Assembly (NCBI GenBank): GCA_964519245.1
Contig: CAZFLK010000012.1
Span: 1 to 63,666 of the forward strand
Origin: an uncultured Verrucomicrobiota bacterium
GTDB taxonomy: Bacteria > Verrucomicrobiota > Verrucomicrobiia > Limisphaerales > JAYPEY01
Reading direction: 5' to 3'
DNA: 63,666 nucleotides
This document shows positions 1 to 61,982 of the stretch, piece after piece; position 1 is the first letter of the stretch, and each line of letters starts with the position of its first letter. The translations under genes and the position numbers were made by a program. The notes under the pieces were generated by a model. That model did no database searches. It was not told where the DNA came from and worked only from the letters and a program-made list of their open reading frames with translations.

Positions 1-3000
1 CGCTATTTTGGCGGCGAACAGAAGTTCTTCACGGATCAGGATCCGAGGGAGCAAACGGGTGATTATCTGCGCATCGCCGGACTCGGCATGACCCAGGACG
101 TCCTGTTCAAGGGCGCGGACAGGGTCACCCTGCACCTCGGCTCCGGCAACGACGCATTTCAGGTCAAGAGCTCCGGCGTCAACGGCGACGACGCCGAGAT
201 CTTCCTCTACACCGGAGCCGGCAATGATGTGATCACGATCCGCTCGGACTACCACTCGCTGGATCACATCATCGGAACGGTTCACGTCGATGCGCAGGGC
301 GGGGATCATAACGAACTGTTGATCAGCGACGCCCATGACGCAGACGCCAATCTGGCGGCCGTCGTGACCGACCACTATGTGACCGGACTGGCTCCGGCGG
401 ACATCTTCTACACGGCCAGCGGCGGCTGGTTCGCAAGTCATTACGACGGCGGCGCGAAGAAGTTTGTCCCGTCCATCACCGTCTACGGCAGCAAAGCCGC
501 CGACACCATCGAAGTGCGCACGACGCGAAACAACCCTGGTGTCCGTGAAGTGACCGAGGTCGATGGCTGGGAGGGCGGCGACACCATCACCGTGACGCAT
601 CAGTTGCCGCGCTATCTGGTCGTGCGGGGTTACACCGGCGGGGACACCCTGAATGCCGAAGCCGCGCGGGTCGGCATCGAAATCTTCGGCCACGAAGGCG
701 ACGACATCATCACCGGCGGCAGCGGACGCGATTTGCTGGTTGGCGATGATGGTGTTGACACCATTGTCGGCAACCAGGGCGATGACGTTCTGTTCGGCGA
801 TCATGCCATCATCGAACGCGAGATGGACTTCAACCTGCAGTTGCTGCAGACGACCAATGATGGCGTTGGCGCGAACGACACCCTGTTCGGCGGCGAAGGT
901 AATGACATTCTCTTCGGCGGGACCGCGAGTGACACGCTCAGTGGCGGCGTGGGTCAGGACATTCTTCTCGGCGACGGCGGTGAGGCCCGACTGGAGTCTG
1001 GCGTCGTCGTTCGTGTGACCGCCTCGAACCACACAGGTGATGGCGGCGATACAATCGATCAGACCGGTTCCGAAGGCGCCGATATCGCATTCGGCGGCAC
1101 GGGGAATGACAAGATTTACGGCGGCTCAGTAGACGCCAGCTCCGATATTCTGGTGGGCGACAATGGCGTCGTCGTGCTGAACGAAGCTGCCAACACTCCG
1201 GCGAACTTCGATATCTACACCCATCAACCGACCTCTGGCGGCGTCGACACCATCGACGGCGGTCTTGGTGATGACTTCATCCTGGGCGGCTCCGGCGGCG
1301 ACGATGTCGCCGGAAACGACGGCGACACCCTGACCGGCGGCCCCGGCCGTGATGTGATCCTCGGCGACGGCGGTTACATCACCCGCGATGCTTCCCGCAA
1401 GGTTACCCAAATCGAATCGAAGGACACCGGCGTGGGCGGCGACGACAAGATCGACCAGACCGGAGCCGGCGGAGCGGACATTGCCATTGGCGGCGCCGGC
1501 AATGACAGGATATCCGGCGGCGAAACGGATACCGCGACCGACATCCTCCTGGGCGATAACGGCGTGGTCTACTTCAACGTCGGCGATGACGACTTCGATT
1601 ACGACGTCTCGACAACGGCCGCCTCGACCGGGGGAATCGACATCATTGACGGCGGTTGGGGCAATGACATTGTCATCGGCGGCGCCGGGGACGATACCCT
1701 GCGCGGCGGACGCGGATCCGACGCAATTCTCGGCGACAACGGCTACATCTGGCGCGACGCCGCCTTGAATGTGCGTCGCGTCGAAACGAGCGACCCCGCT
1801 GTTGGCGGCGACGACGATATTGATGAGACCGGTTTCGAAGGCGCGGATGTGATCTTCGGCGGCTCGGGCGATGATGACATTTACGGCGGCACGGCGACCG
1901 AGGGCGATGTGCTCATCGGCGACAACGGCGTCCTTGCCGGCGGTTCCCCGCTGATCGTTCCCGACGCTGCGTTGGCCGTCGGAGGCGACGTCAACGACAC
2001 CTACACCAAGGACGGAATGCACGGCGGCAACGACCGCATCTTCGGCAGCCTTGGTCCCGACACCATTATGGGCGGCTCCGGTGACGACGATCTCTTTGGC
2101 AATGCCGGCGATGACACCATCTTCGGCGACGGTGGCTATATGGACCGCAACGCCGGCGGCAGCCTGATCACGCTCCGCACGCACGAACCTCAATTCGGCG
2201 GCAACGACCAGATCGATTACATGTCCTACGACGCCGCGAACCCGCATGATCAGACCGCTATTGCGGCCATGGCCTTCACGGATGCGGCGCTGGGCAATGA
2301 CCTGATCTTCGGCGGAACCGGCGGAGACACCATTGACGCCGGTCTCGAAGCGATTTCCCATCGGATCTTCGGCGACAACGGCATGATCGACATTGCCACC
2401 GGGCAGTTGGATTCCACCGACCCCGATCACGGCGGCCCGGACGAAATCACCGGCAGCCCCCTCCGCGACTTCATCATCGGCGGCGCCGGCGGAACGGACG
2501 CGCCGGGCGTCGACGGCGACACTATCGCGGGAATGTCCGGCGATGACGTGATTCTCGGCGACGGCGGCCGTATCGTGTTCGACGCCTTCGGCGACCCGGT
2601 CACGGTGGAAACGCTGCACCCCGCCGCCGGCGGTGACGACCTGATCGATTCGATCGCCCTGCCGCCCGGCAAACGCGCCTACAATACCGAGTACAGCGCT
2701 GCGTTCGCCGGCGATGTGAACGAGGGCGCCGATCTGATCCTGGGCGGCAACGGCAATGATTTGATCGAGGGCGGCGAGGTCGACGACAGCGTGGACGTGC
2801 TGATCGGCGATAACGCCTCGGTGGAAATCGCCAAGCTTGCGGCCTATGTCTCCGTCGTCCTGTTGGACGACACCACCTTCACAATCACCGCGGCCTTCGA
2901 CGGCATTGTCACGACCTCGGCGCTGGGCGGCGACGACGACTTGCTCGGCGGTCGCGGCAACGACGTTCTGCTCGGCGGCCCGGCGAACGATCTCCTGGTC

Positions 3001-6000
3001 GGCGGCGTCGGCAACGATGTCCTGCAGGGCGAAGCCGGCATGGATGTGATGTGGGGCGGTGCGAATCTCCTCGCGGAAAGCAACTTCCGCTTTGTGGACG
3101 CCGCCGATCGTGCGACGAAGCTGGATGTGCCGCCGAACTGGGTCGCTTCCGAGGCGGCGCAACCGACCGGATTTGAGCCCGAACTCATGACGCCGAAGGC
3201 CCTGGCCGGACTGTCCGTGCAGGGCGACGTCATGGACGGGCGCGACACGCTGTTGGGTGGCCCTGATTCAGACTGGTTGTTCGGCGGCGGGGATATCGAC
3301 GGACTCTACGGCGGTCTCGGCGACGACTACCTTGACGGCGGCGTTCACAACGACTACCTCCTCGGAGGCCCCGACAACGACGTGATGCTCGGCGGCGACA
3401 ACGACGACATCATGCGCGGCGACTTCAATCTGGCCGGCGAATTCTCGACCGATGGAACGAAGTTCAAGGGCGTTGATTCCGCAGTGGAATACGAGTTTAC
3501 CACGGCGGGACGCGACCAGATGTTCGGCGGCAAGGGCAGCGACCGGATGTTCGGCGACGGCGGTCCGGACTCGCTCCGCGGCGAACGCCTCTATGGCGGC
3601 GATGACATCGACTTCCTTTATGCCTACTCGCATACGACCGGCGCCTCGACACCGGCTGAGTTCCAGGCGGAGACCCAGATCGGTGGCAGCGAACTTCACG
3701 GCGGTTCCGGTTCGGACTGGCTCTACGGCGGCATCCGGGCGGACATCCTTTACGGCGACAGCGGCGCCGAGTTCATCCACGGCGACTGGCTCTACACCCG
3801 GCGTTACGCGCCCAATCCGAACGCCGACACCCTCGGCGGCGATGACAAGCTCTTTGGCGGCGCGGGCGAGGACCAGCTGCTGGGCGGCGGCGGCAACGAC
3901 GAACTCTGGGGCGGCGCCAATTCGGACTGGCTCCAGGGCCAGGAGGGCAATGACAAGCTCTATGGCGGCGGCAACATCGACATGATCGTCCTCGACAGCG
4001 ACCCCAACTATCGCAACTTCGGCGATGTCTTCGATGGTCACTTCGGAAATCAGTTCCAGTCCGATACGCTGGATGACAATGCAACCGATATCCTGCTGAT
4101 CGAAGGCTCCGACAACCGTGACACGATCTTGATGTCAGAGGAATCCGTGATCCTCGGATCGGTCGAGGTTCCGGAAAGCGGCATGATCGCCGGACAGGCG
4201 ACCTTCACCCTGACGCTCGGCCAGATCAGTCAAACCTTCACTGATATCGATCTGAGCCTCGGCATCGACAACGCGGTGGACGCCCTGAACGTCGCGCTGC
4301 ATGCGGGCAACAGCCCGTTCTTCAATTACGAGGACGCCAATGGCAAGCGGCATGGCCATGTCGAGGCAGTGCGCCGGGGAATGAACATCGCCTTCGTCAC
4401 CCGCAATCAGGGCGACGACACCACCCTCACGCTCAGTGGCGCAAATGACTACGTTAAGAACGTGCTCGGTTTCGCCACGGCCGGCACGGGCCAGGATTCC
4501 GAAAGCTACTTGGTCGTCGACTTCTTCGTCGGCGGCGTCACCGACATCTCCTTCGATCAATGGCCGGCGCGAGGCATCACGACCTCGGCGCCAATCCATT
4601 TCGTCGCGCTGACCAAGTGGCGCTCAGCGAGCGGCGATCCGGCGGTCGAGCAGTTCCGCATCTCGGGCCTCGGCGGCAATGACACGCTCGGCTTCGTTCC
4701 GGGCGCCGCGGCCGTCGACATGACGGTCCTGAGTGACCGCAGCTTTGATTGGGCCGGCGTCGTTGATGGCGGCCCCGGCAATGACACCTTGCTCGGTTCC
4801 TCCGGCCGCGACCGACTGGATGGCGGCTTCGGCAGTGACACCATCTACGGCTTCGACGGAGACGACCGGCTCTTCGGCGATGGCGGTCCGGGTCAGGGAC
4901 TGATCGGCGACGACGATTGGTTGTTCGGCGGTTCGGGCAATGATGACCTGATCGGCGGACAGGGGACCAACCGCATCTACGCCTGGCCGATCGATCCCAA
5001 CATCGGCGGCATCAATGACACCGCCATCACGGAACTGAAGTTCGAGGACGGCTTGGAGGCGTCGGTCACCGACACGAACCGAATCGCCAGCATCCTGTCG
5101 ACAGCCGACGTGCCGGAGGACGGCATCCTCACCGCTGATGCCCACTTCGCCCTGGTTATTGGCGGGCGCTTGTTTGACGTGGTCGTGCCGAAGAGCGCCA
5201 CGGATGGTTCCGCCAACGTGGCCGATGATCCGAACGCCAACATCGACGATCTCGTCGCGGACATCAACGATGCCATTGATAACGCACTTGGAATTCCGGA
5301 TGGCGCCGACAATGGGCTGGTCCGGGCCACGCGGGCAGAAGACGCGAACGGCGGAAAATTGGACCGGATCGTTCTTTCGACGCAGGGCACAACCTTGAGC
5401 ATTACCAACTTGGGGACAGGGAATCCCGCCGCGACGCAGTGGAAGTTCGTCCAAGGGCAGTCCTCCATCGAAGGAGTCATCACCGCCTTGGATGTCGCGC
5501 CCGCCGACGGGAAGATCTCAGGCGGCGACGCCTCGCTCCAGTTGCGGAACAACAACACGGTTGCGACGTTGACCGTTTCCGTGGCGGACACCGATGACAA
5601 CGCGTCCCTCGATGATCTGGTTGACGACATCAACCTGAAGATTGCGGCATCGCCGCTGGCCGATCAGGTGAGCGCTGAGAGCAGCGGCGGACGCATCCTG
5701 TTCCGTTCGTTGACCACATCCATCAAGCTGATTTCCAAGTTCGGCGTCTACCTCAACGAGGACACCGGTCAGTATTACAACCACGACGGCAACGGCCTTT
5801 ACGCCGAGGTCGACACCGGCCTGAACCGCAACCTCGGCAGCCCGAATGACGACCTCCTGTTCGGCGGCACCGGACTGGACTTCCTCTACGGCAATGGCGG
5901 CAACGATACGCTCTACCGCGCCGACGGATCGACATTTGAATCCCTCGATGGCGGTCTCTCCGGCGATGCTTGGAAGGAATACGCGAAGGAAAGCGACAAG

Positions 6001-9000
6001 GTCTGGTACTACCGCGCCACCAACGCGGACGATGTCATCAATGTTGACTTCGTCACCGAGCCCGGCTTGTTCCAGGACCTGCATCTGATCACCCGTCTGA
6101 CGAACAACAACGGCAACTTCACCTTCGCTGCCCAGGTGAAGTTGAACTTCAACGCCACCGACGACGCCGGCAACCCGATCTGGAATCCGGTCGATGCCTA
6201 CACCGACTTCAGCGCATTGCGCATGCAGGCCGAAATGGGCGAACCGGTCGATTCCGGTAATTCCATGGCCGCCGCGAAACTCGAATACCAGCAACAGGAG
6301 ATGGAGAACAACCTCCTGCCGCCGGAGGGCGACTTCATCGCGATCATTGTCGACGCCCTGGGCGGAAACGATCAGATCAACGTCGGGCCTACCGTGCAGA
6401 AGACGGTCTGGGTCGACGCCGGCCCCGGCGACGACACGGTCCAGTTCACCTCGGGCAACGCAATCCTGAGCGACGTGGCCGAGCGGCCGCACCGCAACGA
6501 TATTCCTGACTTCGCCACCGCGCTCGGCGCCGCAGCCCTGATCGGCCGCGCGGACATCTCGGAATTGAAACTCGGCCTGGTCAGCGGCGACGTCGCGAAG
6601 TTCAACCTCGGGTTCAACGGTTCCAACGATGTCTTCGCCCTGAGCCTGCCCTTCGATGGGTTGAACGGTGTCGGCGACAACTCGACGTTGGCGCATCTGG
6701 TCGATGACGTGAATGCGGCGCTGACCTCGGCGGATTTGGCGACCCAGGTCAAGGCCGTCGCCATGGGCGGCCGATTGGCGATCATTCCCACGCTTGGCGG
6801 CAACGTGGTATCCATCCAGATCACGGCTAACGCCGACGACACGTCCGGCGCGCTCGACCAGTTGCAGTTCAAGAACGAGGACATCGCCGGCCAGGCGATC
6901 CTGCTGGCCATGGGCGACGCGCCGGTCAACGGCCAGATTCAGACGGACATTCAGTTCGGCGTGCGCCTGAACAACGGCGCGGCGGTGAACATCACCGTTT
7001 TGGCCAGCGCCACCAACGGTGAGGACGGCGAGGCCAACGCCTCCATTGACGACCTGATCGACGACCTCAACGCGGCCATCGACGAGGCCGGTCTGGAGAG
7101 CTCGTTGCGGGCCGGTCGCGTCGACAACCGCATCCGCCTTTACACCATTGCGCCAATCCAGAATCCGAGCGTCTCGCTGGTGATCCCTGAGAGCAACGCG
7201 ATGATCGATCAGCTCCACTTCGCCAACGGTCAGACCGCCAAGGCGATCTACGTGCTCTCGCGCAACACCAACCTGACCGGTCTGACCATGGACAGCGCTA
7301 CGGACGTGGATTACTTCGTCTTCCAGTTGGGGCATATCCCCGGTGGCGCGCCGCGCATTGAGCTGACCAGCGCCTCGCCGCTCGACGGCCTTGGTATCTC
7401 GATCTTTGACCTGAATCAGTTGGCGGCCAACGCCGCAGTCACCCCGGTCGCCGTCAGTCCGGACGGGCCGGACCTTGACGGCTCAGGCAACAACTCGATC
7501 GCCGACGCCTATCTGCTGCCGGATCTGCGCGACTTGGGGCGGATTACACATCTCAACCTGCACACCGATATGGATGAAGACTTCTTCCATTTCGAGTTGG
7601 AGGCGGACGCCGCGGCCGGCGACAAGATCAGTCTCCTCCAGGGCGGCTTTGAAGGGCTTCTGGAATTGGCCGTTCTGGACCAGGACGGCGCGGTCGTGAC
7701 CTCCGCGCAAACGACCCTTGAAGATGGGCCGGTCATCAGCCTCGCGCTCGATGCGCTGACCAAGGGGGATTACTACCTGCGGGTGAAGCAGGTCGCCGAC
7801 AATGATGGTTCCGGCGCCGTTGATACGGACGAACTGGACGACAACCTCGGCTTGGCTGGCGGCGACGCTTCAACGGCGGCCCTGGGTGTGGTCAATGCCA
7901 ACGGACCTCAGAATGCCTTTACCGTGCGGGCGACATCGAATGGAGCGCAGTTCAACGGAGTGAAGATCATCTTCGAAACCGGCATCGTCACCGCCGGCAA
8001 TGAAACGGCTTCCTACAACTCGACAACCAAGGAGTTGACGCTCTCGATTGAGGATGGAGCATCGACCGCAGCGCAGATCATTGCCGCCATCAAGACCGAC
8101 CCGATGGCGGCCGATTTCACCGCCGAACTCTATGATGTGGGCGGCGGCTATGAGCTCTTCCCGGCCGTCGGCGGCAACGGTTATACGATTCTCAACCTCT
8201 CGGGGCAGTCCAACAGCTCCATCTCCCTGAGCGGCTTGCAGGCCCACACGCCGTATCTGCTCAAGATCGATTCGCCCAACGAAGTGCCGACGATCTACAG
8301 CCTGAATTTCATCCTCGAGGAACCTGCTCAGGAAACGCAGACCATCAACATGGCCGCCACCGTCAACACCGTCCGCAAGGACGTCATCCTCGGCGGAACC
8401 GGCCATGACCGGTTGCAGGGCGGCAGTGGCGAGGATTGGATCTTCGGCGGTCCCGGGAATGACGTGATCACCGGCGGCCTCGATACCCAGAAGAGCGACC
8501 TCCTGTTCGGCGGGCCCGGTGACGACACTTTCCAGATCACCACCGACTACCTGCCAAGCCTGACCAACAACCCGGACGCCACTTTCATCCCGACAACCGT
8601 GGATCGACTGTTCGGCGGCGATGGCGACGACCGTGTCTTCTATCAGGGCGGCGACCTCGACAACCTGAGCCGTCCGATTCCGGACTTCGCCTCGATCCGC
8701 TACAACCGGATCCTGCACCGCTACGAATTTACGACGCTCCTTTGGGATACCGCCAACCAGGAATGGGTCGAGGAGACGTTGCCCGGTTCTTCGCTCGTCG
8801 CCGAGAATAGCCCGACCAGTGTGGACGGACGTCTGGATTCCAACACCACGTTCGAAATCGTCCTCGGCGGTGTGAACTACTCGGTCACCGTTCCGAAGAA
8901 CCTGGGCGACGGCGTTCTCGCGGGCGGCAATGTGGTCGATCTCGACAACGGAGTCAGCCGGACCTTCCGCCTGAGCCTCGGCGCCAACGCTCGATTGACC

Positions 9001-12000
9001 GTCACCGTCACCGGCACCGCCGCGGTGGATGACGCGGACGATTACGCCGCGCAGATCCGTAGCCAGATCGATGCCAGCGAACTGGCGGGGAGCGTCACCG
9101 TCGGATCGGTGGGCAACGCCGGCATGGCCCTCGAGTTCCGTGTGCAGGGCATCGTCGAGGCGGATGAATTGAGCGTCGGGTTGGCGCTCGGCTCCACCGC
9201 CGCGGACCTGGCGGATCTCGGCTTCAATGCCGCGGGCCAGAGCGCGCCGGTCAACAACTCCGCCGGCGATCTCGCCAAGGACATCAAGACGGCCATGCTG
9301 AAGGCGACCAATCAGGATACAACAATGATGGAGGATCTGACCGATCGCCTGGCCGTCGGATCCGACAAGGGCCGTCTGGTGTTCGTTACCAGTGAGCTTG
9401 CCAAGGATGACACACTCGCGATTGCGAGCGGTGGAGCTTTCGGCGACGGCGCGGCTCTCGGCCTGGCCGCCGGGCAAGAGGGCGTTGCGCGGCGCGTGTT
9501 CTCCCAGACCTACGCCTACTACCAAATCAACGAGGTTGAGCGCACGGTGATCGATCTGCGCTCTGGCAACGATGTGTTCCGCGGCGACGCTGAGTATGTC
9601 TTCCGCAACCAGGACGAGGAATGGGGCATCAAGTCCGGCGATGTGCAGCAGGGTGGAGTGATCTCCAATCTCGAGATTCATGGCGGTCCGGGCAACGACC
9701 GGCTGTTCGGCGGCCACTTCGATGACCTGATCTTCGGCAACGACGGCAATGACTTCGTGGCCGGCGGACCGGGCGATGACGTGATCGACGGCGGCCCCGG
9801 CAAGGATCTCCTCGCCGGCAACTCAACCTCTCAGCCGGACGACTTCGAATTTGTCACGCGCAACGCCGTCGATGGCCTGAATGACGACGTCAATTTTGCC
9901 TCCTTCCTGCCCGACCTGACTGCGGGTCTGGAAATCGACGGTCTGACCTTCCACGAGGGCGACCCGGGCGATTGGTACCTGATCCGCACACCGGAGCCGC
10001 TCAAGCAGTTGCTGGAGCCCGGCCAGGGCTGGCTGACTCAGGAAATGATCTCCATCGTGTTCGACGACGCCTTTGAGAACGACCTGTTCAACAACGGCGG
10101 CGGTGGACCGATCCTCGACGACCTTTCGAAGCTCGAGAACACCCGCTACTTCCTCTTTGCGGCCCAGGACACGGACGCCGGCGAGGCCTTGTCCGTCGTT
10201 CCGGTCGAGAAGTTCAGCGGTGTGCCGGAGTATTACCTCCTCCACGTCGTCAACCTCCGCGCACAGCAGGTCAAGGCCGTCGATGCCGGCCCGTCAAACG
10301 GACGCATTCAGGACCCGTCCAAGGCCGACGACGACACCGCGAAGTTCACCCTGATCCTGGACGGCGCCGCCCATGTGATCACCGTCGCCGACGACGCCGG
10401 GAACACCACGCTAGATGACCTCGTCGACGACGTTAATGCCGCCTTCGTCACGGCGAACATCGGCGACCGGGTCTTCGCCTACAATGAGCTTGGCAAGATC
10501 GTGATCAGCCGCGTGGACGCCGGTTCCATCTCCTTCACTGCGGATCCCGGAACGGCTGCCAATGTGCTGGGCTTCCTGCCCGTGGATACCAATGCGGGTC
10601 GCAACCCCGCGATGGGCGGCTACAAGATCGTGTTCAGTGAGGCCGTCGGCAAGACGATCGAAGTCGCGCCGGCCGCCGCCAACCTCACCATCAACTCGCA
10701 GTTCGCCGCCTACCGGCCGGTTGTCATTCCGCTCGGCGACATCAACGGCGACGGCTTCGGGGACTTCGTCGCCGGCATCAGCGACAACATATTCGGAACC
10801 GGGCCGACCCAGATCCGCATCTACCTCGGCGGCCACATTGATGAGGACTTCGACGGCGACGAGATCTTCGATGTCGGCGAGGACCTCAATGCCAATGACA
10901 AGTTCGACACGGCCAGCGCCTACTTCCTGAATAACTCGGACTTCACGCTCGCCCTGCCGGCGCCGGTCCTGCGCGAATCGGTCGGAGCCGACACCGCCAA
11001 GCTGCGCAGTTACTTCAGTGAGCCCGGCGATGTGAACGGCGACAATATCGACGATATCGTGGTGGCGGTTACCCGGATCGACGGCGGCGCCAGCGCTGCC
11101 GCCGCTGTCTACGTGTTGCACGGCCGGGCCGACGATCCCGCGACGCCGCAGCCGGATGGCTGGGCCGCCAATGTCGCCCTCGCCACTGCCGCGGATGTGA
11201 CCGTGGATGTGCCGGACGTGGCGACGGGCAGAATCGCAGCCGCAATCGTTGGCGACCTTAACGGCGACAACAAGGACGACCTCGCGGTCAGTCGCGACAA
11301 CACGCTCTATCTCAAGTCCGGAGCCTCCTTGATGGCGGCTGAGACCCTGACCGCTTGGACCGACAGCTACACACTGGGTGGCGGGACGCTGGGCGACTTT
11401 GGGGCTGTCGGTGATTTCAACGGCAACGGCAATGACGACTTTGGCGTCATCGATGAGACGACGGACCGGCTGCATGTCATCACGAACGAGGCCTTCACAG
11501 GCAATACCGTGGCGTTGGACGCCTCGCCGGCTGAGATGAGGTTCGATCACACAGCCGATCTGGACGGCTATTCCATCGTCGCGCTGGGCAACCTCAACAA
11601 GGATCTCGATACCGGTCGTCCGATCCAGGACTTCGGTGTCACCAGCCAGACCGGCTCCTTCGTTCTGTTGGGGCGGACGGTCAATAGGGCGATGGATCCG
11701 GATGACGCCATCGCCATCGAAGCAGGCGTCCAGCTCGTCAATGCGGGCGACTTCAATGACGACGGTTTCGACGACGTTGCGGCCGTCAAACTGGAGCGGA
11801 CTCCGCGACTGGACGAGAACGGCGGACAGTTCGTGCATTCCGTCGGAATCCTTTATCTCGGAACGATGACGGGCATAGATTCCGCCAGCCCGAACCTGGT
11901 CTTCGAACGTTCCCAGCCGAATTACCTGGCTGAGGCCGGAGCCTCGATCCCGGCGGGTCTGTTCGCCTTCGTCGGCGACGTGAACAACGTCCCGTCCGGC

Positions 12001-33000: not shown

Positions 33001-36000
33001 CACGGAACGGGCAACATCCTGCTCAAAGCCGGAACCGCCGGCGCGAACGACAAGGATATTGATCTGAACGCCCCGGTGATGTCCTCCGGCGGCCGCATCA
33101 CGATTCTGGCGAACAATGACGTTGCACAATCGATCGCCATGGTCGGCGCGACGCAGGGCGATATCACGACCCCGGGCGGTGGCATCGATGTCGAGGCGAC
33201 ACACGGCTCCATCACGATGACGAACGGCGTGAAGACCCAAGCCGATGGCGGAGTGATCCGCTACAAGGCGGCCGGTGATGTTTCCATCGGCGGGTTGCTC
33301 GCTGCGGGCGGTTCGGTGAGCGTTATTGCCACAACCGGCGACATCCTGGATCTGGGCGATGCGCACAAGGATATTGTCGCCAACGAGTCCCGCCTGGTCG
33401 CTGGCGCTGGCATTGGCGAAAGCGACGATCATCTGGAGATCGCCGTCACGACCGTCGCGGCGCAGGCCGCCGGCGATGGCATTTACTTGCTGGACGACGA
33501 CGCGATCACCGTCGGCGCCGTGGGGCCGGTCGCTTTCCATCGGGTGGCGGCCACCGGCGCGGCGTCCGTGCAGACGGATGCCCAACTGACCGGCGCGGGC
33601 ACAACTGCGGGCAACGGCAACATCGTGGTCGGCACGGTTGCCGGCGGCGTGACCGTGTCCCAGAGCGTCGTGGCGCACGGAGCCGGGAACATTCTGCTGC
33701 GGGCCGTCGGCGCGACTTCGGATATCGCCCTGACCGCTCCCGTTTCGACCTCGACCGGCAGCATTTCAGTGATCGCCGATCGCAATGTGCGCCAAGAGGT
33801 GAAAGGCGATCTGACGGTCGGCGGAACCGGAACCATCGACGTCGAGGCGGCGGGCGGCACGATCGTGATGGTCGACGACCAGGCCGCCATGAATCCGGAC
33901 AGCGCCACCGCGACGACCGCGGGCGGCTCCATCCTCTACGTCGCGGAAGGCGATATTACGCTCGGAGCTTTGAACGTCGGCGCGACGGGAGCCATCCAGA
34001 TCGATTCCGCAAGCGGGTCGGTCCTGGACGCGGGAGACACTGAAGTCGACGTCACGGCAATGACTGTTCGCTTTACCGCAGGAAACGGCGTCGGGACAGG
34101 CGATGCATTGGATCTGGCTGTGGATGTGTTGGCGGCGAGCGCCGGAAACGGCGGGGTCTTCCTGCTCGACCGGGATGCGGTGACCGTTGGTTCGGTCGCA
34201 GGAGCGCAGGTGAGCCGGGTCGGGGGCATGGGGATCGCCAGCGATCATCCGGTCGCAGCGGCGGCCGACCTCGTCGGTGTCATGACCGTCGCTGTGGCGC
34301 CGGGCGTGGGCGTGTTCGTCTCGGCCGTTGATGGCGTCACAGCCAACGGTGCGGCGGCGGCCAATGCCACACTTGAACTCCTTTCCACCGGAGCCATCAA
34401 TGACATCCTGTTCGAAGCGCGGGAGACCGGCGTGGAATGGAACGGCGCCGAGATCCGGATCGAGGACGATGCGGCGTTGAGCGGCGATGTTGCGGAAGTC
34501 CGGTTCTATGACGAAGCCAATCCGCTCGATCCGATGGATGCGCGGAAGATCCTCGTCATCAAAGTCAGCTTCAACGAAACCACCGCGGCCACGGTCATCG
34601 ACGCGGTGAATGCTCACACGTTGAAGAATGGCGCCGCGGTCGAATTCACGCCGGCTGAGCGTCCGTTCACGGCCTCTCCGGGCGGCGACTTTGGCGCTGT
34701 CGGCGGCCACGTCGCCGTGCGGACGACCAATGGTTCCCTTACGGTCAGTGAGGCCGTCAGTGGCGCGGGCGCCAGCAACATCCTGCTCGAAGCCGGGACC
34801 ACGGCCGCCAATGACAAGGACGTTGTCCTCGGCGCCGCGGTCACATCCGGCGGCGGCAGCGTGACCATCCTGGCCAATCACGACATTCTGCAGGCCGCGG
34901 CCGCCGACATCACGACCATGGGCGACGGCACGATCGAGATGGAAGCGACCCACGGGTCCATCACCATGAGCGACGCCGCGGCGGACAGCGCCTTCGCGAC
35001 CACGGCAGGCGGCAACATTCGCCTCCTCGCCGGAATGGATGTCAATCTGGGCGGCGTCGACGCGTCCGGCGGCGACGTCAGTGTTGTTGCGGCGGGCGGT
35101 TCGATCACGGACAACGGCGATTCGGCGGTGGATGTGACGGCTGCTTCGTTGAGGCTGGAGGCGGCCAACGGCATCGGGACGGGCGCCGGCCATCTGGACG
35201 TTGCCGTTGAGAGGATTGCCGCCCAGGCGGCCGGCGGCGGCGTGTTTGTCACCGAGGCCGATGGCGTGACCGTGGATTCCATCCCGGGTGTCGCGGTCCA
35301 TCGCGTGGCGTCGCTGGGTTCGACTTCGACGGTGACGAACGATCAGGCCTTGGCCGGCTTGAGGACTACGCAGGGCAGCGGGGACATCGTTCTGGCGACC
35401 TTGGCCGGCGATCTCGCCGTCGTCCAACCAGTGACCGCGCATGGCGCCGGAAATATCCGCGTCGATGCCTTCAACGATCTGGCCGTTCAGGCTGCCATCG
35501 GGAGCACGAGCGGAAACATCTCACTCAGCGCCGGCGGCAGCCTGACGCAGACATCCGCCGGCGTCATCGCCACCGGCGACGGCACGATTGATGTTCAGGC
35601 GACGACCGGTTCGATCGCTATGAGCGCCGGCGCTGTCGCGGTGACCTTGAACCGCAACATCCGCTACCAGGCGGGAACGGATGTCAGCCTTGGCCTGCTC
35701 AACGCTGGCTCCGGGAACGTGGCGGTGATCGCCGGCGGATCCATCAGCGACAACGATGCGGAGGCCTTGAACGTATCGGGCGCCGAAGTCCGGTTGGAGG
35801 CCGCCGCCGGAATCGGAACGGGCTCCAACGCGATCGATGTCGCCGCTGGAACCCTCGCCGTCGCGGGCGGCGCGGACGGTGTCTTCCTGAGCGAAGCCGA
35901 TGCCCTGACGGTCGGTGAAGTGGCGGATGTCCGCATCTCTCGCGTGCAACTGGATGGGTCGGATGTCCTCACACCGGTGGTTGCAGGACCGAATCTGGCG

Positions 36001-39000
36001 GGCATCGCGGCCGTTGGCGGCGACGGTTCGATCGTGCTGCGGACGAAGAACGGCAGCCTGATTGTGGATCGGGCAATCTCGGCCGCTGGACTCGGCAATG
36101 TTCTCCTACAGGCCCGGTCCGGATCGGCGACCCATGACAAGGATCTGACGATCAACGCGTCCGTCAGTTCCGTCATGGGCAGCGTCAGCCTGATCGCCGA
36201 CCGCGATATTCTGCAGAATGTCGCGGGCGATGTGACGGTTGGCGGCGCGGGCACGATCGATGCCCAGGCGCAGAACGGCTCCATCACGATGGTTGACAAT
36301 GCCGCCGACAGCGCGGCCGCGACGACGGCGGGCGGCAACGTTCGTTACGTCGCCTCGGGCGATGTCCTGGTCGGCTCCTTGAACGCCGCCGCCGGAAACA
36401 TCAGCGTCATCGCAGGCGGCGACATTCTCGACAATGGCGACACCCTGGCCGACCTGATCGGCGTGAACCTGAGACTGGACGCCGCCGGCTCCGTGGCGCG
36501 CGGTTCGAATCATCTGGAAACGGCCGTTGCCACCCTGGCCGCCCGCGCCGTGAAGGGACTCTACCTGACCGAGGTCAGCGACCTGGCGATCGACACGGTT
36601 TCGGCGATCTCGGTCAATCGCGTCGACATGGACGGAACGGTTCCGGCCGGCATGATCCGGACGAACATTGCCCTGAGCGAGATTCGCATCACCGAGAATG
36701 GCAACCTGGTTCTCGATCTGACGAATGGAACGCTTTCGGTCGAGAAAGCGATCGTCACCGAAGGCAATGGCAACATCCGCTTGACCGCGCAGACAACGGG
36801 CGCCAACGACAAGGACATCGCGCTGAACGCGCCGGTCACCTCGACGACGCGCAATGTCACCTTGATTGCCAACCGCAATGTCACCCAGACTCCTGCGGGC
36901 GATGTCACGGCCGGCGGAACGTTGGACGTTGAGGCGGAGTCCGGTTCGATCGTGATGACGGACGGAGCCGTGTCGCAGACGCAGGGCGGAGCGATTCGTT
37001 TGCGCGCAGCGCAGAATGTGACCCTCGGAGGATTGATCGGCGGCGACGGCGACGTCAGTGTGACGGCGGTTGCGGGCTCGATCGTCAGCGCCGGTACGAT
37101 GGACACGGAGATCATGGCCGGTCGGGCGCGGTTGAATGCCGGCATCGGCATCGGCCTTGGCGCGGACCACCTCCAGACGGCCGTCGATGTCCTGGCTGCG
37201 CGGGCGACCTCCGGCGGCGTCTTCCTGCAGGACGGGGACAATCTGACCGTGGATGCGATCGGTGCCATCTCCGTCAGTCGCGTCGACTCCAACGGCTCCA
37301 CACCGACCTTGTTGCGCCAGACCGACGCCGCCCTGACCGAGGTCCGCACGTCTGCGGGCAATGGAGCCATCGTCCTCAGCACGGCGGATGGAACGCTGAC
37401 GTTGAACCAGGCGGTGGTTGCACATGGCGCAGGCCCTGTTCGCCTCGAATCGAAGACCTCCGGCGCCAACGACAAGGATATCGCGCTGAACGCTGCGGTT
37501 GCTTCGGGAACCGGCGACATCAGCATCCTCGCCAATCGGAATATCAGTCAGATCGTGGTCGGCGACGTCAACACGAATGGCGGCACGATCGACCTGCTGG
37601 CGAGCAACGGTTCGGTCAACATGGCCAATGGCGCGGTGACCAACGCCGCGTCCGGAGCGATCCGGGTCGAGGCGGCCGTGAACGTCACGCTCGGAGGCCT
37701 GGCGGCGAACGCAGTCAGCGTGATCGCAACCAACGGAGCCATCCTTGACGGCGGCGATCAGGATGTCGATGTGGCGGCCGGACGCGCGCGCCTGGTGTCC
37801 TCGAATGGAATCGGAACCGGTTCCGACGCCCTGGAGACTGCGGTGACGACCCTGGCGGCGAACGCCGGAACCGGCGGTCAGTTCTACCTCGAACTGGACG
37901 GCATGGTCATCGATACCGTGGCTGCGATCACCGTGAACCGCATCGACGTCGATGGCGGCATCGCCTCGATGCCGACGGACGCCGCCTTGAGCGACCTGGT
38001 TGCGGACGGCCACATCGTCCTGCAGACCCTGGACGGCTCCATCACGGTGAACGAGGGATTGGCGCCGCTTGGCGGCCTGGTTTCGCTCGGCGGCAACATC
38101 CTCCTCGAGGCCCGCACCGCCGGCGCGGATGACAAGTTCATCCAGATCAACGCTCCGATCGCCGCGAATGCCGGCTCGATCTCCCTGTTGGCCAACCAGG
38201 ACGTCAATCAGGCGGCGGCGGGCGACCTCTCCGTTGGGATGGCCGGAACCATCGATGTCCAGGCCAGGACTGGAAGCGTAACCATGGTTGACGGGGCCAC
38301 GGCGACCACGGCTGGCAGAAATATCCGTTACGAGGCGGAAGTCGATGTCACGCTCGGAGGCCTGGACGCGGCGACCGGCGCGGTTGTTGTCGAAGCCGGG
38401 CGCAACGTGATCGACGGCGGATCGATGGACAAGGATGTGATGGCTTCCGCCCTGCGCATTGTCGCCGGCAGCGGGATCGGAACGCTCGCCAACGCCCTCG
38501 ACACTGCGGTCGACGCGGTGGCTGCATTGTCCGGCAATGGCGGCGTCTTCCTGACGGACGACAATGATCTGGCGGTCGGCGTCGTGGCGGGGGCGCAGGT
38601 CGGGCGGGTGACCCGTTCCGGCGCGATAACGCCACATCTCGACCCGGCTTCGGACGATCTCTCCGGGATCGTCACCGGCGCGACCGGGCAGGTGGTTCTC
38701 ACCTCGTTGGCCGGAACGCTCACGACCGTGAACGCGACCATCGAAACCGATGTCTTGACCGCCGCCGCGCCCGGTCAGATCTCCCTGGATACGAACGTCA
38801 ATGAGATCGTGGCCGAGACGACCGGCGACAGCCCGATCGAGATTCGCGAGTTCGACGGACTTACCGCGGTCGACATCGACGCCGGCGCGAACGACGTCAC
38901 GTTGACGGCCGGCGGTTCGGTGACGGATGGCGACGCCATGGTCGACGTGCAGGCGCGGACGCTGACCGCGACGGTGAACGGCGGCGTGGGGACCGGCGAT

Positions 39001-42000
39001 CATCGCCTCCAGACCGCCGTAACAAACCTCAATCTCGACACCTCCTTGGCGGATGGAGACCAATGGCTCGATGAGTCGGATGCGTTGGCTTCGTTGAACT
39101 TGGACGCCGGAATCGGAAACGTCGATCTGCTGGCGGGCGGAGCCATTCTCGATGGCGACATGGATGCGGATGTTCGCGCCACGACGTTGACGGTATTCAT
39201 CGATGGGGACTTCGGAGCCGGAACCGGCGCCGATGAAGCCATTGACACGGACGTGTCTCATCTGAACGTCGACACCACCCGGAACATGGCAAATGGCAGC
39301 CAGTGGATCGATGAGACGGACGGCTTGTCTACGTTGAACCTCAACGCCGGAATGGGCGATGTGACCTTGAGCGCCGACGGCAGTGTGCTGGACGGTGACG
39401 CCGAGGCCGATGTTCGCGCCACGACTCTCACGGCGACGGTCACTGGCGACTTCGGCGGTGGAGCGGCGGCCGACGACGCCATCGACACGGCCGTTGACAA
39501 TCTCAACGTGGACACCGCCGCGGTTGACGGCAGCCAATGGATCGACGAGGCCGATGGCTTGGCCACGCTGGATCTGGACGCCGGACTCGGCAATGTGACC
39601 CTGACCAGCGGCGGCGCGGTGACGGATGGCGACGCTCAATCGGATGTCCAGGCGATGACCCTGACCGCGGTCATCCAAGGCGCATTTGGCGCGCCGGGCG
39701 GCGGCGACAACAGCATCGACACGGCTGTGACGAACCTGAACGTCGATACAACCCATAACGCCGCCAACGGCAGTCAGTGGATTGACGAGACCAACGGCTT
39801 GGACACCTTGGACCTCAACGCGGGAACGGGTGATGTCACCCTGAGCGCGGGCGGGACGGTGGCCGATGGCGACGCCGGGGTGGATGTTCGCGCCACGACC
39901 CTGACGGCGACGATCGACGGCGACTTTGGCGCGATGGGCGGCGCGGATGCCGCCATCGACACTGCGGTGACCAACCTGAACGTGGACACGACGCTCAATA
40001 TGGCCGCCGGCAGCCAGTGGATCGATGAAGTCGATGGTTTGGAGACGTTGGATCTGGACGCTGGAACCGGTTCGGTGAATTTGAACAGCGGCGGCAAGGT
40101 GGTTGACGGCGATGACCAGGTTGACGTCCAAGCGACCACGCTGATTGCAACGATCGACGGCGACTTCGGAGCGATGGGCGGCGGGGACGCGAGCATCGAC
40201 ACCGCAGTGGATCACCTGAGCATCGACACAACGGTGGGTGGAGTGGATGGCGCCCAGTGGATTGACGAAGCGGATGGCCTCCTGACGTTGAACCTCAACG
40301 CTGGAACGGGCTCCATCACCTTGAACAGCGGCGGTCCCGTGATCGACGGCGATGCGGACGCCGACGTGCGGGCCATGACGCTGACGGCGACGATCGAGGG
40401 TGACTTCGGCGCCATGGGCGGCGGCGGCGCCAGCATCGACACGGCAGTTACCCACCTGAACGTGGATACCACGATCAATGGAGCCGACGGCAGCCAGTGG
40501 ATTGACGAGACCGATAGCTTGAGTTCCCTGGGCCTGGATGCCGGAACCGGCAACGTGACGTTGAACAGCGGGGGCTCGGTGACGGACGGCGATGCGCAGA
40601 CGGATGTGAACGCAACCACGCTGACGGCAACGATCAATGGTAATTTTGGCGCCGCCACAATGGCTGATGACGCCATCGATACGGCGGTCGAGAACCTGAA
40701 TGTGGATACCAGCCAGGCCAATGGCAGCCAGTGGCTCGACGAGGCCGATGGCTTGGCAACGCTCGACCTGAACGCCGGCGCCGGCGATGTGACGCTGACC
40801 AGTGGGGGCGCCGTGACGGATGGCGATGATCAGCCGGACGTGCGGGCGACTACCCTGACAGCGCGGATCGAAGGCGACTTCGGCGCGACGGGCGGCGGGG
40901 ACGCGAGCATCGACACCGCGGTCACTCACCTGAATGTGGACACGACGTTCAATATGGCCAACGGCAGCCAGTGGATCGACGAGGCCGATGGGCTGATGAC
41001 CCTGGATCTGAACGCTGGAACGGGTTCGGTGACGCTGAACAGCGGCGGTTCGGTGACGGACGGTGAAGCTCAAGCGGACGTCCGGGCGACCACTCTGACC
41101 GCGACGATCGAGGGCGACTTCGGCGCCATGGGCGGCGGCGACGCGGCGGTCGACACCGTTGTGACCCATTTGAATATCGACACGACGATCAACGGAGCTG
41201 ACGGCAGTCAGTGGATCGATGAGGCGGATGGTCTGGCCACGTTGGATCTGGCGGCGGGCGCGGGCAATGTGACTCTTAACAGCGGCGGCGCGGTGACGGA
41301 TGGCGACGCCGGGACGGACGTTCAGGCGGATGTGTTTGTCGCGGCCATCAAGGGCGCCTTCGGCGTCGTGGGCGGCGGCGACAACAGCATCGACACCGAT
41401 GTTTCGCAGTTGATCGTGGACACCGCGTTTGGCGGAGCCAACGGCAGCCAATGGATCGACGAGGTGGATGGATTGGCCGGCTTTGACCTGAACGCGGGGA
41501 CCGGCGATGTCACCCTGAATGCCGGAGGTTCGGTTCGTGATGGCGACGCCGCCCTGGACGTCCGGGCCACAACCTTCACGGCGACGATTGCGGGCGCTCT
41601 TGGAGGTCCTTCCGGCGGTTCGGACAGCATCGACACCAAGGTCGCTCACCTCAACGTCGATACGGCCATCGCGAATGGCGACCAGTGGGTCGATGAAGTC
41701 GATGATTTGATGTCGATTGATCTGGATGCCGGGGCTGGTTCGATCAACCTCGAGGCTGGCGGCTCCATTGAGGATGGCGACGCCGCGATCGATGTGGTCG
41801 CAGCGGCGGTCGCGTTCACTGCGGTAACCGGCATTGGCGCGCTGGCCCCGTTGGCCACGAACGTCCAGCAGATCTCGGCCGTCACTGGCAATGGCGACAT
41901 TGACATCGACAATGTTTCCGCAACCGCGGTGACGGCGACGCTCCTGCAGACCGGCGTTGGCGCAGTCGATCTCAGTCAGACCGGCGCGGGTTCGCTGACC

Positions 42001-45000
42001 GTGCAAGTAGCGGAAACATCCCTGGGCTCCATTGGTATCGACTCCGATGCGGACCTGACGGCGCTTTCGGTGGATGCCCGCGGCTTGGGCAGCGATGTCA
42101 TGCTGACGACGCGGGTTGGCGGCGTGTTCGTTGATCGGGTGATCGCGACGGATCGCATCGCGGTTCTCTCGGCGGGAGCCATCGAGGAGTCCGGCTCGGA
42201 TCCGGACGCTGAGTTTGATGCGGTGACGCTCGGCTTGGGCGCGGTGGACGGCATCGGCTCCTTGGGAACCATCGAAACCATGGTCGATAACCTGACCGCG
42301 GCGACGCTCTCAGGCGGGGTCGACCTCATGAACACGGGCGCCTTGATCGTCAACAGCGCGAATGTCATGGCCTCCGGCGGCATTTCCATCGTGGCGACCG
42401 CCGCGGTGACCGTGGTCGGCAATGTGAGCGCGCCGGATGCGATCCTGCTGCAGGCCGGCGAGATCAGCGACGCGCCGGTGTGGGCGGATGATTTGACCGT
42501 CCGCACAGGCGTCACCGTGCAATCCACCGGCGCGGGCGTCACGCTGCGGGCGGGCGACGACGTCTTGCTGGAGGCCGGCTCCTTTATCCGGGGCGCAGGA
42601 ATGGTCACGATTGCGGCCGGTTACGCCGACCTGGACGGCGGCGCGGAAGCATCGCTGCTGGGCACGATCGTCGCGGACGGCGGGTTGGGCGTGACCGCCT
42701 TGGGTGATCTGATCGTGGGCGCAATCGTGGCGGACGGAGCGGTCGTTTCCCTCGATACGCAGAATGGCGCCATTCTGGACGGCAACGGCGCTGGAGTTGT
42801 CAACGTGACGGCCGCAGGCCTGGTTGGCGGCGCGGCAACCGGGATTGCCCTCGATACGGCTGTTTCGAGCCTCGATCTTGATTCGGATGGCAACGACATC
42901 GAAGTGGTCAACACCTCGGCCACCGCGTCCACCGCCAACCTCCTGGTTGCCGGAATGGGGCGCATCAAACTCGACCAAACGGGCGGCGGCGATCTGAGTG
43001 TCGATTCGGCGCAAACCGGCGATGGCGATATTCTGATTGTCCTGGATGAAGGGGCTTTGGCCGTGAAGAGCGTCATCGCTGGCGCGGACGGCAATGTGCT
43101 GTTGCAGGCCGGCGATGCGCTGGTCCCCGGATCTTCGTCGATCGAGATACTGGATGCGGTCACCAGCTCCGGCGGTCATATCACCCTGCGCTCAGCGAAT
43201 GCGGTCACCCTGAACGCCCAGACGACGATTGCCACCCTCGGCGACGGAACCATCGATGTGCTGGCGGCCGGCAATCTGGAGCAGCACGATGACAGTCGTT
43301 TCGCTGCGGTTGATGGCGACGTGGCCTTGTTTGCGAACCGCATCCTGTTGGGCGGCGTCTCAACCGGCGGCAACGTCGTCCTGTCCGCGAACGCCGTCGT
43401 TGATCAGGGCGACCTCGGCGGGGCGGATGTGGCGGCCGACGGATTGTTGGTCCTGGGCGGCGCCGGAGTCGACGTCGCCGCGGTCGACGCATTGGAAACC
43501 GACATCGCCGTCCTGGCTGGATCGCTCAGTTCCACCGGACTGTTCGTGACCGAGCTTGACGGCCTTGAGGTGGGCGTTGCCGGGGCTCTCACCCAGCGTG
43601 TCGGCGAGGACGGTCTGCTGTCGCCGAATACAACGACTTCGGTGACCGGTCTTGAGGTCCGGGGCAATCATACCGTCGCGCTGCGCTCGCTCTCCGGAGA
43701 CCTGCGGGTGGCGGAGGCGATCGGGCCCGTTGGCATGATCGTTCTGGGGTCGGGCGAACAGCCCGCCGGCGCCCTGCTCGAATCGGCCGCCGCAGACGCC
43801 GATGTCATCTTGTCGGCCGATGTCGAAATCGGCGGGCCGGTGAGTATCCTGGGCGGCCGCGAAGTCACCCTCGGCGGGAATTTCACTTTGAGCAGCGGAG
43901 CCTCCGTGGATGTGGAAGCGGGAACGGGTTCGGTGGTGATGGATGCGACTTCGAGCATTCTGAGCCCGCTGGCCGGTCACATTCGTATCGCCGCCATGAA
44001 CAACGTCGTTCTGGGAACGGTCGACGCTGGCGCGGGCAACGTCGGCATCACGGCCTACATCGGGTCCATTCTGGAGGCCACGGACCCCTCGGCGACTGCA
44101 ACGCACATTACCGGGGCGGCGGTAGCGCTCCGGGCCGGTAACTCAATCGGCGGCTTCAGCGTTCGGGAGTATCGCTTCGAGTTCTCCACGAACCTGCGGG
44201 ATTGGACCAGCTTGGCGACGGTTGTCTCGGCGGATGATCGGGTCGCCTACACGGCCCCGAACCCGGGCACGAGCTTCGGGTTCTATCGCGTGGTCCTGCC
44301 CGACGAGAATGCGACCACGGTCTGGGTGGCGCCGCAGGTTCTGCCCACCGGTGAGTTCCTGCTCGATTTGGATCGGGCGTTCGTCGGGCCGTTCCAGGGC
44401 ACGAATGCTCTTGAGGTCGAGGCGCAGACGCTCTCGGCGTCGGCGGGCGTGGGCGGTGTCAATGTGGTGGATGTTAGCGGCGTGGCCATTTCGGGCTCCG
44501 TGGTGAGCGTGGAGCGGGTCGGGGCCGATGGCGCGACGACGGCGGTCGTGGATTCGGCGTTGAACGGGGTCAGCACAACCGATCGCGGCTCGATTGTGAC
44601 CCGGACGGCCGCGGGCGACTTGACGGTCAATCAGGCGGTCTTCGCCGACGGCGATGGTCAGGTCCGCTTGGAAGCCGGCGGCCTGGGCGGCGCGCTCGAG
44701 ATCAATGCAAACGTCGCCTCGGTCTTTGGCAATATCAGCCTCTCGGCTGACTCGGGAGTCGCCCTCATGGCCGACGTGACCACCGGTCGGGACGGCGATA
44801 TCGATGTCCATGTTGCGAACGGCGGATTGACCCAGGCCGAGGGAACGACCGTTCGGGCTGTCTCCGGCGACATTCGGATCGTCGCCCAGAGCGACATTGC
44901 GTTGGCTTCGGTGGCCACGGACGCCAATGTCAGCATCACGTCGGCCATGGGCTCCGTGAGCGACGCCGGTGATCAGGCCGTGGATGTCCGGGCGTCCTCT

Positions 45001-47761: not shown

Positions 47762-47953
47762 GGGCGGGTTTGCTGAAAGGGTTCCAATGCGTAATGCCGG
47801 CAAGATGTGCCATCCGATCTGCTTGTTGGCAATGACACTTTTGGTTCGAGGCGCTAGGTTCGCAAGGCTGCCGGCCGGCGCGTTTGCCAACCCATGCCGG
47901 CAGCATGATTTAGATCGTTTGTGCAGCGGGAATTCGTAAGCTTCAGTCGAAAT

Positions 47954-49210: not shown

Positions 49211-49254
49211 TCCCGGCGACGGGTAGGGACGCGCGGCGGTGAGATAGCCCCCGC

Positions 49255-49965: not shown

Positions 49966-50048
49966 CGAAAGCCGGAATCGTTCACGAACCCCCGGCAAAT
50001 GCGAGCAGAATTCACCGAGGAAGCCCCTGTCGACGTCGCCCGATCCCC

Positions 50049-50186
50049 GTAGGCGCGCTCGTAAGAGCGTGGGCGACACGCGTCCGCGGCAGCTTTTGCT
50101 TTCTGCCTTCGCTCCACCTTCTCACGAAGGCGGCTACGTTGCCTGATGCACGTAGGCGCCCACGCTCTTGCGAGCGCAGCTTCTAC
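50049..50186. repeat. Cluster of GTAG-family REP-like palindromes
   Basis: GTAGGCGCGCTCGTAAGAGCGTGGGCG (50049-50075, +) and its inverted relative at 50157-50186. GTAGCCGCCTTCGTGAGAAGGTGG (50114-50137, -). Confidence 0.65.
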
Positions 50187-54294: not shown

Positions 54295-54398
54295 ACATGT
54301 CGATGAATTTCAGTTTTATCGACATATATCGTTGATCTGTCGTCCTCATCGACATATGTTGCAAACACGTCGATAGAATTGATTTTTTTAAACATGTC
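54295..54398 (+). promoter_or_regulatory. Putative operator array (ATCGACAT x4) upstream of fic
   Basis: ATGTCGAT 54297-54304, ATCGACAT 54318-54325, ATCGACAT 54348-54355 and ACGTCGAT 54367-54374 in an AT-rich intergenic region. Confidence 0.55.
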
Positions 54399-61891: not shown

Positions 61892-61982
61892 AGCAATCAT
61901 TCCAATCGAATCTTCAACAACCCACATTGGCGTAAGGATGGAATCGGACATCCGCAACCGCAGTAGCAACACCGTCGACCCG

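Follow-up and report, generated by a model that had tools for sequence, protein, structure and literature searches.

A probable ~93-kb gene of a verrucomicrobial bacterium encodes a predicted giant surface protein with locally nested modules

The giant reading frame and its domain layout

The stretch of DNA analyzed here, hereafter the window, comprises 63,666 nucleotides from an uncultured member of the Verrucomicrobiota and corresponds to the entire contig CAZFLK010000012.1 (C12) of a draft genome of 6.4 Mb in 403 contigs (G000). The window is dominated by one reading frame of 15,710 codons at positions 1-47133 of the forward strand which is open at the 5′ end and closes with a stop codon at 47131-47133. 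The window sequence contains no N, and the frame product lacks cysteine and is composed of 12.6% glycine, 12.4% alanine, 9.7% aspartate and 9.4% threonine. As the window is a whole contig, its first base marks the edge of the assembly and not the start of the gene. A first-pass annotation made from the sequence alone had described one uninterrupted frame of >15,700 codons, which is borne out but understates the gene by about half. The reading favored here, which is held to be likely, is that the frame constitutes the C-terminal half of a ~93-kb gene for an acidic extracellular surface protein of ~31,022 residues that has no cysteine, depends on calcium, belongs to the LEPR-XLL class and carries nested modules in its central region.

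The N-terminal half of the gene would lie outside the window. A scan of all contig ends in the draft genome revealed that contig C11 finishes in a 3′-open frame of 15,341 codons (C11:20371-66393, including codons that precede the first methionine), of which 15,310 are counted from the first methionine after the upstream stop (C11:20464-66393). The final residue of C11 aligns to residue 15366 of a frame in a second assembly, G003, and the first residue of C12 aligns to residue 15369; the same two end residues align to residues 12358 and 12361 of the first of two tandem genes (G041a and G041b) in the more distant relative G041. The junction is spanned by single contigs in both G003 and G041, and therefore ~2 codons appear to be missing between C11 and C12, giving a product of 15,310 + 2 + 15,710 = ~31,022 residues. 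A six-frame translation of the genome contains only two instances of the motif [YF]xGGEQK, one at codon 2 of C12 and the other 13 codons short of the C11 terminus, and the first base of the window is overrun by a contig in all four public sequencing runs that were examined. The C11 and C12 frames are inferred from the orthologues to be one gene. Within positions 1-2000 of the window, the intervals ~177-198 and ~1435-1455 are several-fold deeper (~45) in the public contigs and lead into unlike sequence; these peaks likely reflect RTX-coding words that are common to other genes or organisms.

Frames collinear with the gene were found in other assemblies. A single-contig frame in G003 extends for 28,751 codons, frames in G004 and G034 span 27,799 and 28,355 codons, respectively, both being cut off by the contig edge within or close to the C-terminal repeats, and G041 includes a complete frame of 21,260 codons. 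Residues 1001-1800 of the window frame (residue numbers refer to this frame unless another is named) are the best conserved part, with 67-95% identity to the orthologues, and a match to this segment at E ≤ 1e-60 was present in 5 of 121 genomes sampled in the order, G000 included. Part of the first 3 kb of the window was present in 20 of 21 public runs listed, 10 of which held at least half of its words; no run is recorded as RNA, all 21 being entered as, or guessed to be, DNA. The runs holding this segment derive from 17 studies, mostly of salt marsh, estuary and seawater, and the host is a salt-marsh or estuary member of the Verrucomicrobiota.

The domain content of the window frame was assessed with Pfam and NCBIfam models in 20 overlapping chunks of up to 1000 residues; default HMMER filters lost true hits in these giant proteins of biased composition, and the --max setting was used afterwards. 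RTX repeats (PF00353) exceeded the cut-off in seven of the chunks, mainly at residues 1-3300 and 8790-9275, as did P_proprotein (94.5 and 74.7 bits, residues ~4480-5031), FG-GAP (PF01839; 27.4 and 46.4 bits, residues ~3750-3814 and ~5177-5203) and PA14 (39.7 bits, residues 5504-5600). These four entries in the motif list of the first-pass annotation thus stand, whereas the others are below the cut-offs or without a family: PPC at residues 2525-2596 scored 19.8 bits against 25.9, LRR_4, a leucine-rich repeat (LRR) model, scored 21.7 bits against 27 at residues 8899-8937, and the 'beta-helix' arrays are named by no Pfam or NCBIfam family. The ELWxxDGT model (TIGR04534) produced matches at residues 5942-5986, 6031-6075 and 8146-8173 (E 3e-12 to 5e-6), but the best scores per 1000-residue chunk of 46.4, 30.2 and 26.4 bits fall short of the curated cut-off of 65 bits. 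A strict regular expression for the motif found no site and a looser one found three, and a profile built from those three recovered the same three only. The protein possesses ELWxxDGT repeats without qualifying under the curated rule as a TIGR04534 member. No Pfam match was observed in 9 of the 20 chunks, including all eight that cover residues 9601-15710, and a PDB sequence search with residues 3501-5700 returned a single weak PA14 match (E 0.0061).

The C11 frame contributes the LEPR-XLL motif (NF012209), which scored 26.7 bits at its residues 41-62 against a cut-off of 17. This half also contains ~9,700 residues of repeats with a period near 123 residues, one RTX block, a full PA14 domain (107 bits) and, at residues ~410-540 of C11, weak lipase-like alpha/beta-hydrolase matches that are all below cut-offs. 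Overall, a central region of ~14,000 residues holds RTX beta-rolls, two FG-GAP propellers, ELWxxDGT-type regions, an LRR, P-domains and two PA14 domains, and is flanked by the repeats of the C11 half and by ~5,200 residues of tandem repeats in the window half. Plain tandem array accounts for about half of the protein.

All features of the window frame lie on the forward strand. RTX beta-roll blocks interleaved with unnamed ~100-residue modules (residues 1-3300) occupy positions 1-9900, and the propellers and their inserts described below follow. A first ELWxxDGT-type repeat region (residues ~5666-6130) lies at 16996-18390 and a second (residues ~7230-8200), with a weak PPC-like insert at residues 7651-7803, at 21688-24600. 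The C-terminal repeat array, which has no family match, extends over residues ~10300-15500 (30898-46500) and includes 13 units of ~80 residues, up to 75% identical to one another, at residues 12930-13942 (38788-41826). The array is succeeded by a non-repetitive C-terminal domain (residues 15500-15710; 46498-47130) that is common to the end of G041b and whose nearest cluster in the Atlas is made up of hypothetical proteins from Verrucomicrobiota; DUF11 is no more than a lead.

Modules within the loops of other domains

The presence and absence of inserts was examined in a MAFFT alignment of five orthologues (G000, G003, G004, G034 and G041a) over residues 1-9400. Propeller 1 (residues ~3560-4180; positions 10678-12540) yielded FG-GAP matches in four stretches (E 3.4e-8), and seven calcium-loop motifs were recognized by eye at residues ~3580, 3667, 3752, 3805, 3865, 3917 and 3991; a strict search for the motif found eight loops, with more discernible by eye. 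The seventh motif of propeller 1 is split by 112 residues (3996-4107) that correspond to an unnamed module of ~95 residues, here termed module X (copy 1, residues 3996-4112; positions 11986-12336), which is 60% identical to residues 7111-7192. G000 and G003 possess the blade-7 module, which G004, G034 and G041a lack; in G041a the loop is seen to be contiguous. Propeller 1 of G041a has two further inter-blade inserts (~100 and 170 residues) without counterpart in G000.

Propeller 2 is interrupted on a larger scale. Three FG-GAP blades (residues 4186-4370; 12556-13110) are followed by ~668 residues that contain approximately four P-domains (residues 4371-5037; 13111-15111) and then by four or five further blades (residues 5038-5370; 15112-16110). 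Residues 4186-4370 and 5038-5252 match stretches that are only ~26 residues apart in a homologue of 7,321 codons in assembly G001 (BLAST E 1e-30 and 2e-9). The G001 region produced FG-GAP matches in five stretches (E 7.8e-20), and the two halves of propeller 2 correspond to its blades 1-3 and 4-6.

Three further sites display the same pattern. A small unnamed host (residues 5371-5399 and 5620-5665; 16111-16995) is split by a PA14 block of ~220 residues (5400-5619; 16198-16857) in G000, G003 and G004, a block confined to the genus, whereas G034 and G041a have the host uninterrupted. An internalin-like LRR (residues 8895-8972 and 9069-9125; 26683-27375) is split by a 96-residue copy of module X (copy 3, residues 8973-9068; 26917-27204) in the same three proteins and is contiguous in the same two. 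A loop in the second ELWxxDGT-type region (residues ~7905-8040) contains a ~125-residue module in G000 and G003, module X in G034 and G041a, and is nearly empty in G004. Thus, as judged from the orthologue alignments, whole modules appear to have been inserted in loops of other domains and to be polymorphic among orthologues; the nesting seems real but local, with only one level found. The inserted modules would project sideways from their hosts.

Module X recurs beyond these hosts. A profile matched four copies each in G000, G003 and G004, two in G034 and one in G041a, and neither G041b nor the C11 half gave a match; in total, five distinct sites are occupied across the five orthologues. Copy 2 lies at residues 7109-7208 (21325-21624), a site occupied in G004 by three copies in tandem. 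The best Pfam match to the module had an E value of only 0.32, and the Atlas offered unnamed clusters and, as a lead only, a phage tail-sheath beta-sandwich at 0.82. A tentative extension of these observations, which at present appears doubtful rather than probable, is that module X is an intragenic mobile cassette that is copied in frame into surface loops of host folds with no relation to one another, namely the calcium loop of an FG-GAP propeller, the LRR solenoid and a loop of an ELWxxDGT propeller, as well as into a linker between modules, with each site occupied in some close relatives and vacant in others, such that the largest PVC (Planctomycetes-Verrucomicrobia-Chlamydiae) protein outside Omnitrophota would be a scaffold whose display modules are reshuffled between populations.

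Structure models were produced with AlphaFold2 for two of the sites. The model of residues 4180-5379, built with five sequences, had a mean predicted local distance difference test score (pLDDT) of 45.2 and a predicted template modeling score of 0.29; the P-domains formed compact units with pLDDT values of 60-82 and the propeller blades attained values of 25-35. The insert-free G001 row was left out of this folding alignment as MAFFT spread it across the P-domains. The model of residues 8851-9140, built with 11 rows, had a mean pLDDT of 64.9: module X was a compact unit at ~70-90 and the part after it was at ~40. The first 100 residues of this LRR model matched Listeria internalins (E 4.6e-4, root-mean-square deviation 2.0 over 105 columns), and the fold search named only the LRR part, with nothing for module X.

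Several observations weigh against the favored reading. The join lacks a bridging G000 sequence, no overlap of 21-127 nucleotides was found between the ends of C11 and C12, and depth was low at ~3-8 in the public-run contigs examined. Three near orthologues (G003, G004 and G034) break in or near the 80-residue array and the copy number there is thus uncertain. No secretion-system gene was found in 20 kb upstream or 16.5 kb downstream (9 and 10 frames scanned, respectively), and the placement of the protein at the surface, its dependence on calcium and its binding of ligands are all inferences. At the level of the modules, a host that closes around its insert is seen in neither AlphaFold model, both being too weak on the hosts, and neither module X nor the PA14 host has a family match: the 116-residue contiguous host from G034 had no Pfam match at E ≤ 1, its PPC-like character was perceived by eye only, and the term 'host domain' at the PA14 site denotes a result of alignment alone. 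Furthermore, an extra module in G003 and G004 at residue ~3147 follows a similar module and looks like tandem gain or loss.

The AlphaFold models and the extra module at residue ~3147, together with the three tandem copies of module X in G004 and the large share of plain tandem array, would be expected if the protein were a purely linear string in which the split motifs are degenerate or partial repeats beside independent domains and the differences among orthologues reflect ordinary gain and loss of beads. This alternative is considered unlikely. The calcium-loop motif of blade 7 is itself cut by module X and is whole in three orthologues, and G034 and G041a can be aligned with no gap through the points at which the LRR and the PA14 host are interrupted. 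Moreover, the blades that flank the P-domains correspond to successive parts of one contiguous propeller in G001, and FG-GAP propellers with three or four blades are not known.

Local insertion of modules is retained as the preferred reading, at a smaller scale than envisaged by the first-pass annotation. That account had proposed growth by insertion into loops, and named beforehand, as a test, that inserts be present or absent at the same loops in homologues. Such polymorphism was observed in the five orthologues and inserts vary at five or more sites; growth by insertion does not extend to the half of the protein that is tandem array, nor to the bead at residue ~3147. Split motifs were reported to be 100-2,400 residues apart, and spans of ~96 to 668 residues were verified at five sites, but no split of ~2,400 residues was found: the ELWxxDGT repeats that are 2,157 residues apart come from different repeat regions, with nothing to mark them as halves of a single domain. 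A 'matryoshka' architecture throughout the protein is not upheld, with one level of nesting and ~5,200 residues (window) plus ~9,700 residues (upstream half) of plain repeats, and the branched fold finds no backing in models of such low scores on the host domains.

Two genes in one relative and the gene setting

The G041 locus (G041:C71:25249-105737) comprises two tandem genes, of 21,260 and 5,520 codons, that are separated by 150 nucleotides. The second, G041b, has its own LEPR-XLL-like start and terminates in the same domain as the window frame. Residues 1-9392 of the window frame follow G041a and residues 9124-15710 follow G041b. The end of G041a and the start of G041b form a duplicated segment, and residues ~9124-9392 of the window frame (positions 27370-28176) match both. 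The locus in the window might be divided like that of G041, into a gene that ends near residue 9400 and another that begins at residue ~9100 with a LEPR-XLL start of its own, the two being merged in G000 by a missed stop or a mis-join of the duplicated segments. This is very unlikely, as four separate assemblies (G000, G003, G004 and G034) agree on one open and collinear frame through residues 9000-10600. With one gene in the window lineage, the arrangement represents either a fusion in that lineage or a fission in G041.

The comparison with orthologues also bears on the integrity of the frame. The G003 orthologue is 90% identical to the window frame, with 74-97% identity per 300-residue window apart from two, which reach 68% and, where an indel lies, 60%. 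Over 2,280 codons the differences between G000 and G003 were distributed by codon position as 158/110/718, and four other stretches gave 77/29/280, 25/5/123, 29/12/126 and 104/51/403, such that third positions were in excess in all five stretches tested. Order and frame are preserved over ~13,000 window codons in three other assemblies and over the full length in the two tandem G041 genes. Because the orthologue frames are collinear and the substitutions mainly third-position, the 47-kb frame is, on this comparative evidence, considered to be real coding sequence. An assembly artefact, either a chimera of repeat-rich genes in a metagenome bin (which the first-pass annotation had named as a refuting outcome) or a collapsed repeat, would suit a draft of 403 contigs with many other long frames broken at contig ends, the low depth in public contigs, and 80-residue units of up to 75% identity in or near which three orthologous contigs end, yet is highly improbable given the conserved order and frame, the sustained identity to G003 and the third-position bias.

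In the same genome, 38 or more additional frames of ~900-4,200 codons are truncated by contig ends, and contigs C307, C313, C249 and C352 are among those that are open end to end. As so many frames are interrupted in this way, G000 holds more broken giant genes.

The single gene proposed here is preceded by genes for Msr, an AraC/XylR-type regulator, two short-chain dehydrogenases/reductases, a sodium:solute symporter, a GH2/GH43 protein and two sulfatase proteins, with the sulfatase and GH2/GH43 genes at 9166-19012 of locus L038. Downstream are genes for a flavin mononucleotide (FMN)-dependent dehydrogenase and a YkuD L,D-transpeptidase (window positions 47921-50079), a Fic protein, a WD40 protein, an extracytoplasmic function (ECF)-type sigma factor and a sulfatase (61695-63296). 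The Fic/DOC protein (54379-55479, forward strand) has Fic_N and SoFic-like C-terminal domains, and its gene is overlapped at the end by four bases by an unnamed frame of 173 codons. The WD40 protein is a 793-residue protein with WD40 and PQQ-like propellers (57231-59612, reverse strand) and adjoins the ECF-type sigma factor (60136-60702, forward strand). The gene setting points to the breakdown of sulfated glycans. The two repeat arrays may act as spacers, and the central region would be the ligand-binding part, probably for glycans or particles because sulfatase and glycoside-hydrolase genes flank the giant gene. Several modules of this region sit in loops of host domains and would be displayed to the side, and the gene would diversify by in-frame gain, loss and relocation of ~100-residue modules, above all module X.

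Relation to known giant proteins and significance

The closest parallels are with the RTX adhesins, among them AhLap of Aeromonas hydrophila, FrhA of Vibrio cholerae and MpIBP. These proteins likewise are giant, calcium-binding and repeat-rich, use long arrays as extenders, possess PA14 and lectin-type modules, and have binding modules (a carbohydrate-binding module, vWFA or a short RTX roll) that bud from a host which is completed afterwards. Ligand-binding domains are reported to emerge from 'split domains' for which crystal structures exist, and in AhLap an insert sits within a vWFA domain that is in turn housed by the beta-roll, giving up to three levels (PMC12077191). Because split domains are published for RTX adhesins, nesting is not new in principle and is known from smaller bacterial adhesins, and the first-pass annotation's suggestion of an undescribed system is set aside. 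The differences are nonetheless considerable. AhLap has ~5,000 residues compared with ~31,000 here, and the hosts in the adhesins are immunoglobulin (Ig)-like extenders whereas here they are FG-GAP and ELWxxDGT propellers, an LRR and a small unnamed domain; in addition, the N-terminus here is of LEPR-XLL type and the organism is a verrucomicrobium.

The giant protein fails the tests for membership of the type I secreted RTX adhesins. The RTX nonapeptide repeats are present, in the chunks noted above, and emergence of modules from split hosts was seen in the orthologue alignments at five sites, with weak structural models. However, the C-terminal RTX roll of type I adhesins is lacking: the last RTX repeats are at residues ~9246-9275 of 15,710, and the final 6,400 residues have none and finish in another end domain. 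Genes for the type I secretion ABC transporter, membrane fusion protein and outer-membrane factor were not found among the 10 downstream and 9 upstream frames scanned, the rest of the genome not having been searched. Ig-like extender families were detected in no chunk, and the arrays have no Pfam or NCBIfam match.

The N-terminal motif, which scored above its cut-off, is shared with the LEPR-XLL giants of Planctomycetota and Verrucomicrobiota (NF012209), although the '8K' in the name of the model would imply a much shorter protein than the present one. No LEPR-XLL protein with a tested function was found in the literature, where the term occurs only in passing. A database search with an 800-residue piece as query, confined to proteins of 1,401-4,000 residues, uncovered relatives that combine RTX with FG-GAP, P_proprotein or Laminin_G_3; most are marked partial, and they are named as LEPR-XLL domain-containing, FG-GAP repeat, ELWxxDGT repeat or calcium-binding proteins.

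An analogous arrangement exists in integrin alpha subunits, in which an FG-GAP propeller with calcium loops carries an inserted ligand-binding I-domain between two blades. Propellers of approximately seven FG-GAP blades with calcium-loop motifs are present here also, and the blades around the P-domain insert align to one contiguous G001 propeller, although in the AlphaFold model these blades are poorly defined. In contrast to integrin alpha, the insert consists of approximately four P-domains between blades 3 and 4, a second propeller has its insert inside a calcium loop, and the protein is bacterial.

In size the gene resembles other giant genes of the PVC phyla, which similarly are very long, encode predicted surface proteins and are broken by assembly. 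The largest planctomycete gene is given as 36,239 bp (Kohn 2016; PMC5177795), and proteins of up to 85,804 residues are described in Omnitrophota, with none of >30,000 residues in other PVC phyla and with the remark that fragmented genomes hide long frames (West-Roberts 2023; bioRxiv 10.1101/2023.11.21.568195). If the join between C11 and C12 holds, a protein of ~31,000 residues exists in Verrucomicrobiota, a size class that within PVC is reported by West-Roberts 2023 only for Omnitrophota. The window by itself shows half of the gene, which calls for caution in annotation.

The five orthologues, at 40-90% identity, provide a record of the entry and exit of domains in loops as well as of two giant genes that were either joined into one or derived from one by splitting. 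The use of 'split domains' as a guide to binding domains would be extended from Ig-like hosts to propellers and LRRs, and pieces that comprise a host plus its insert offer small constructs with which to ask whether modules displayed on loops bind ligands. Should module X prove to be a cassette, the gene family would possess a cassette-like means of varying surface specificity.

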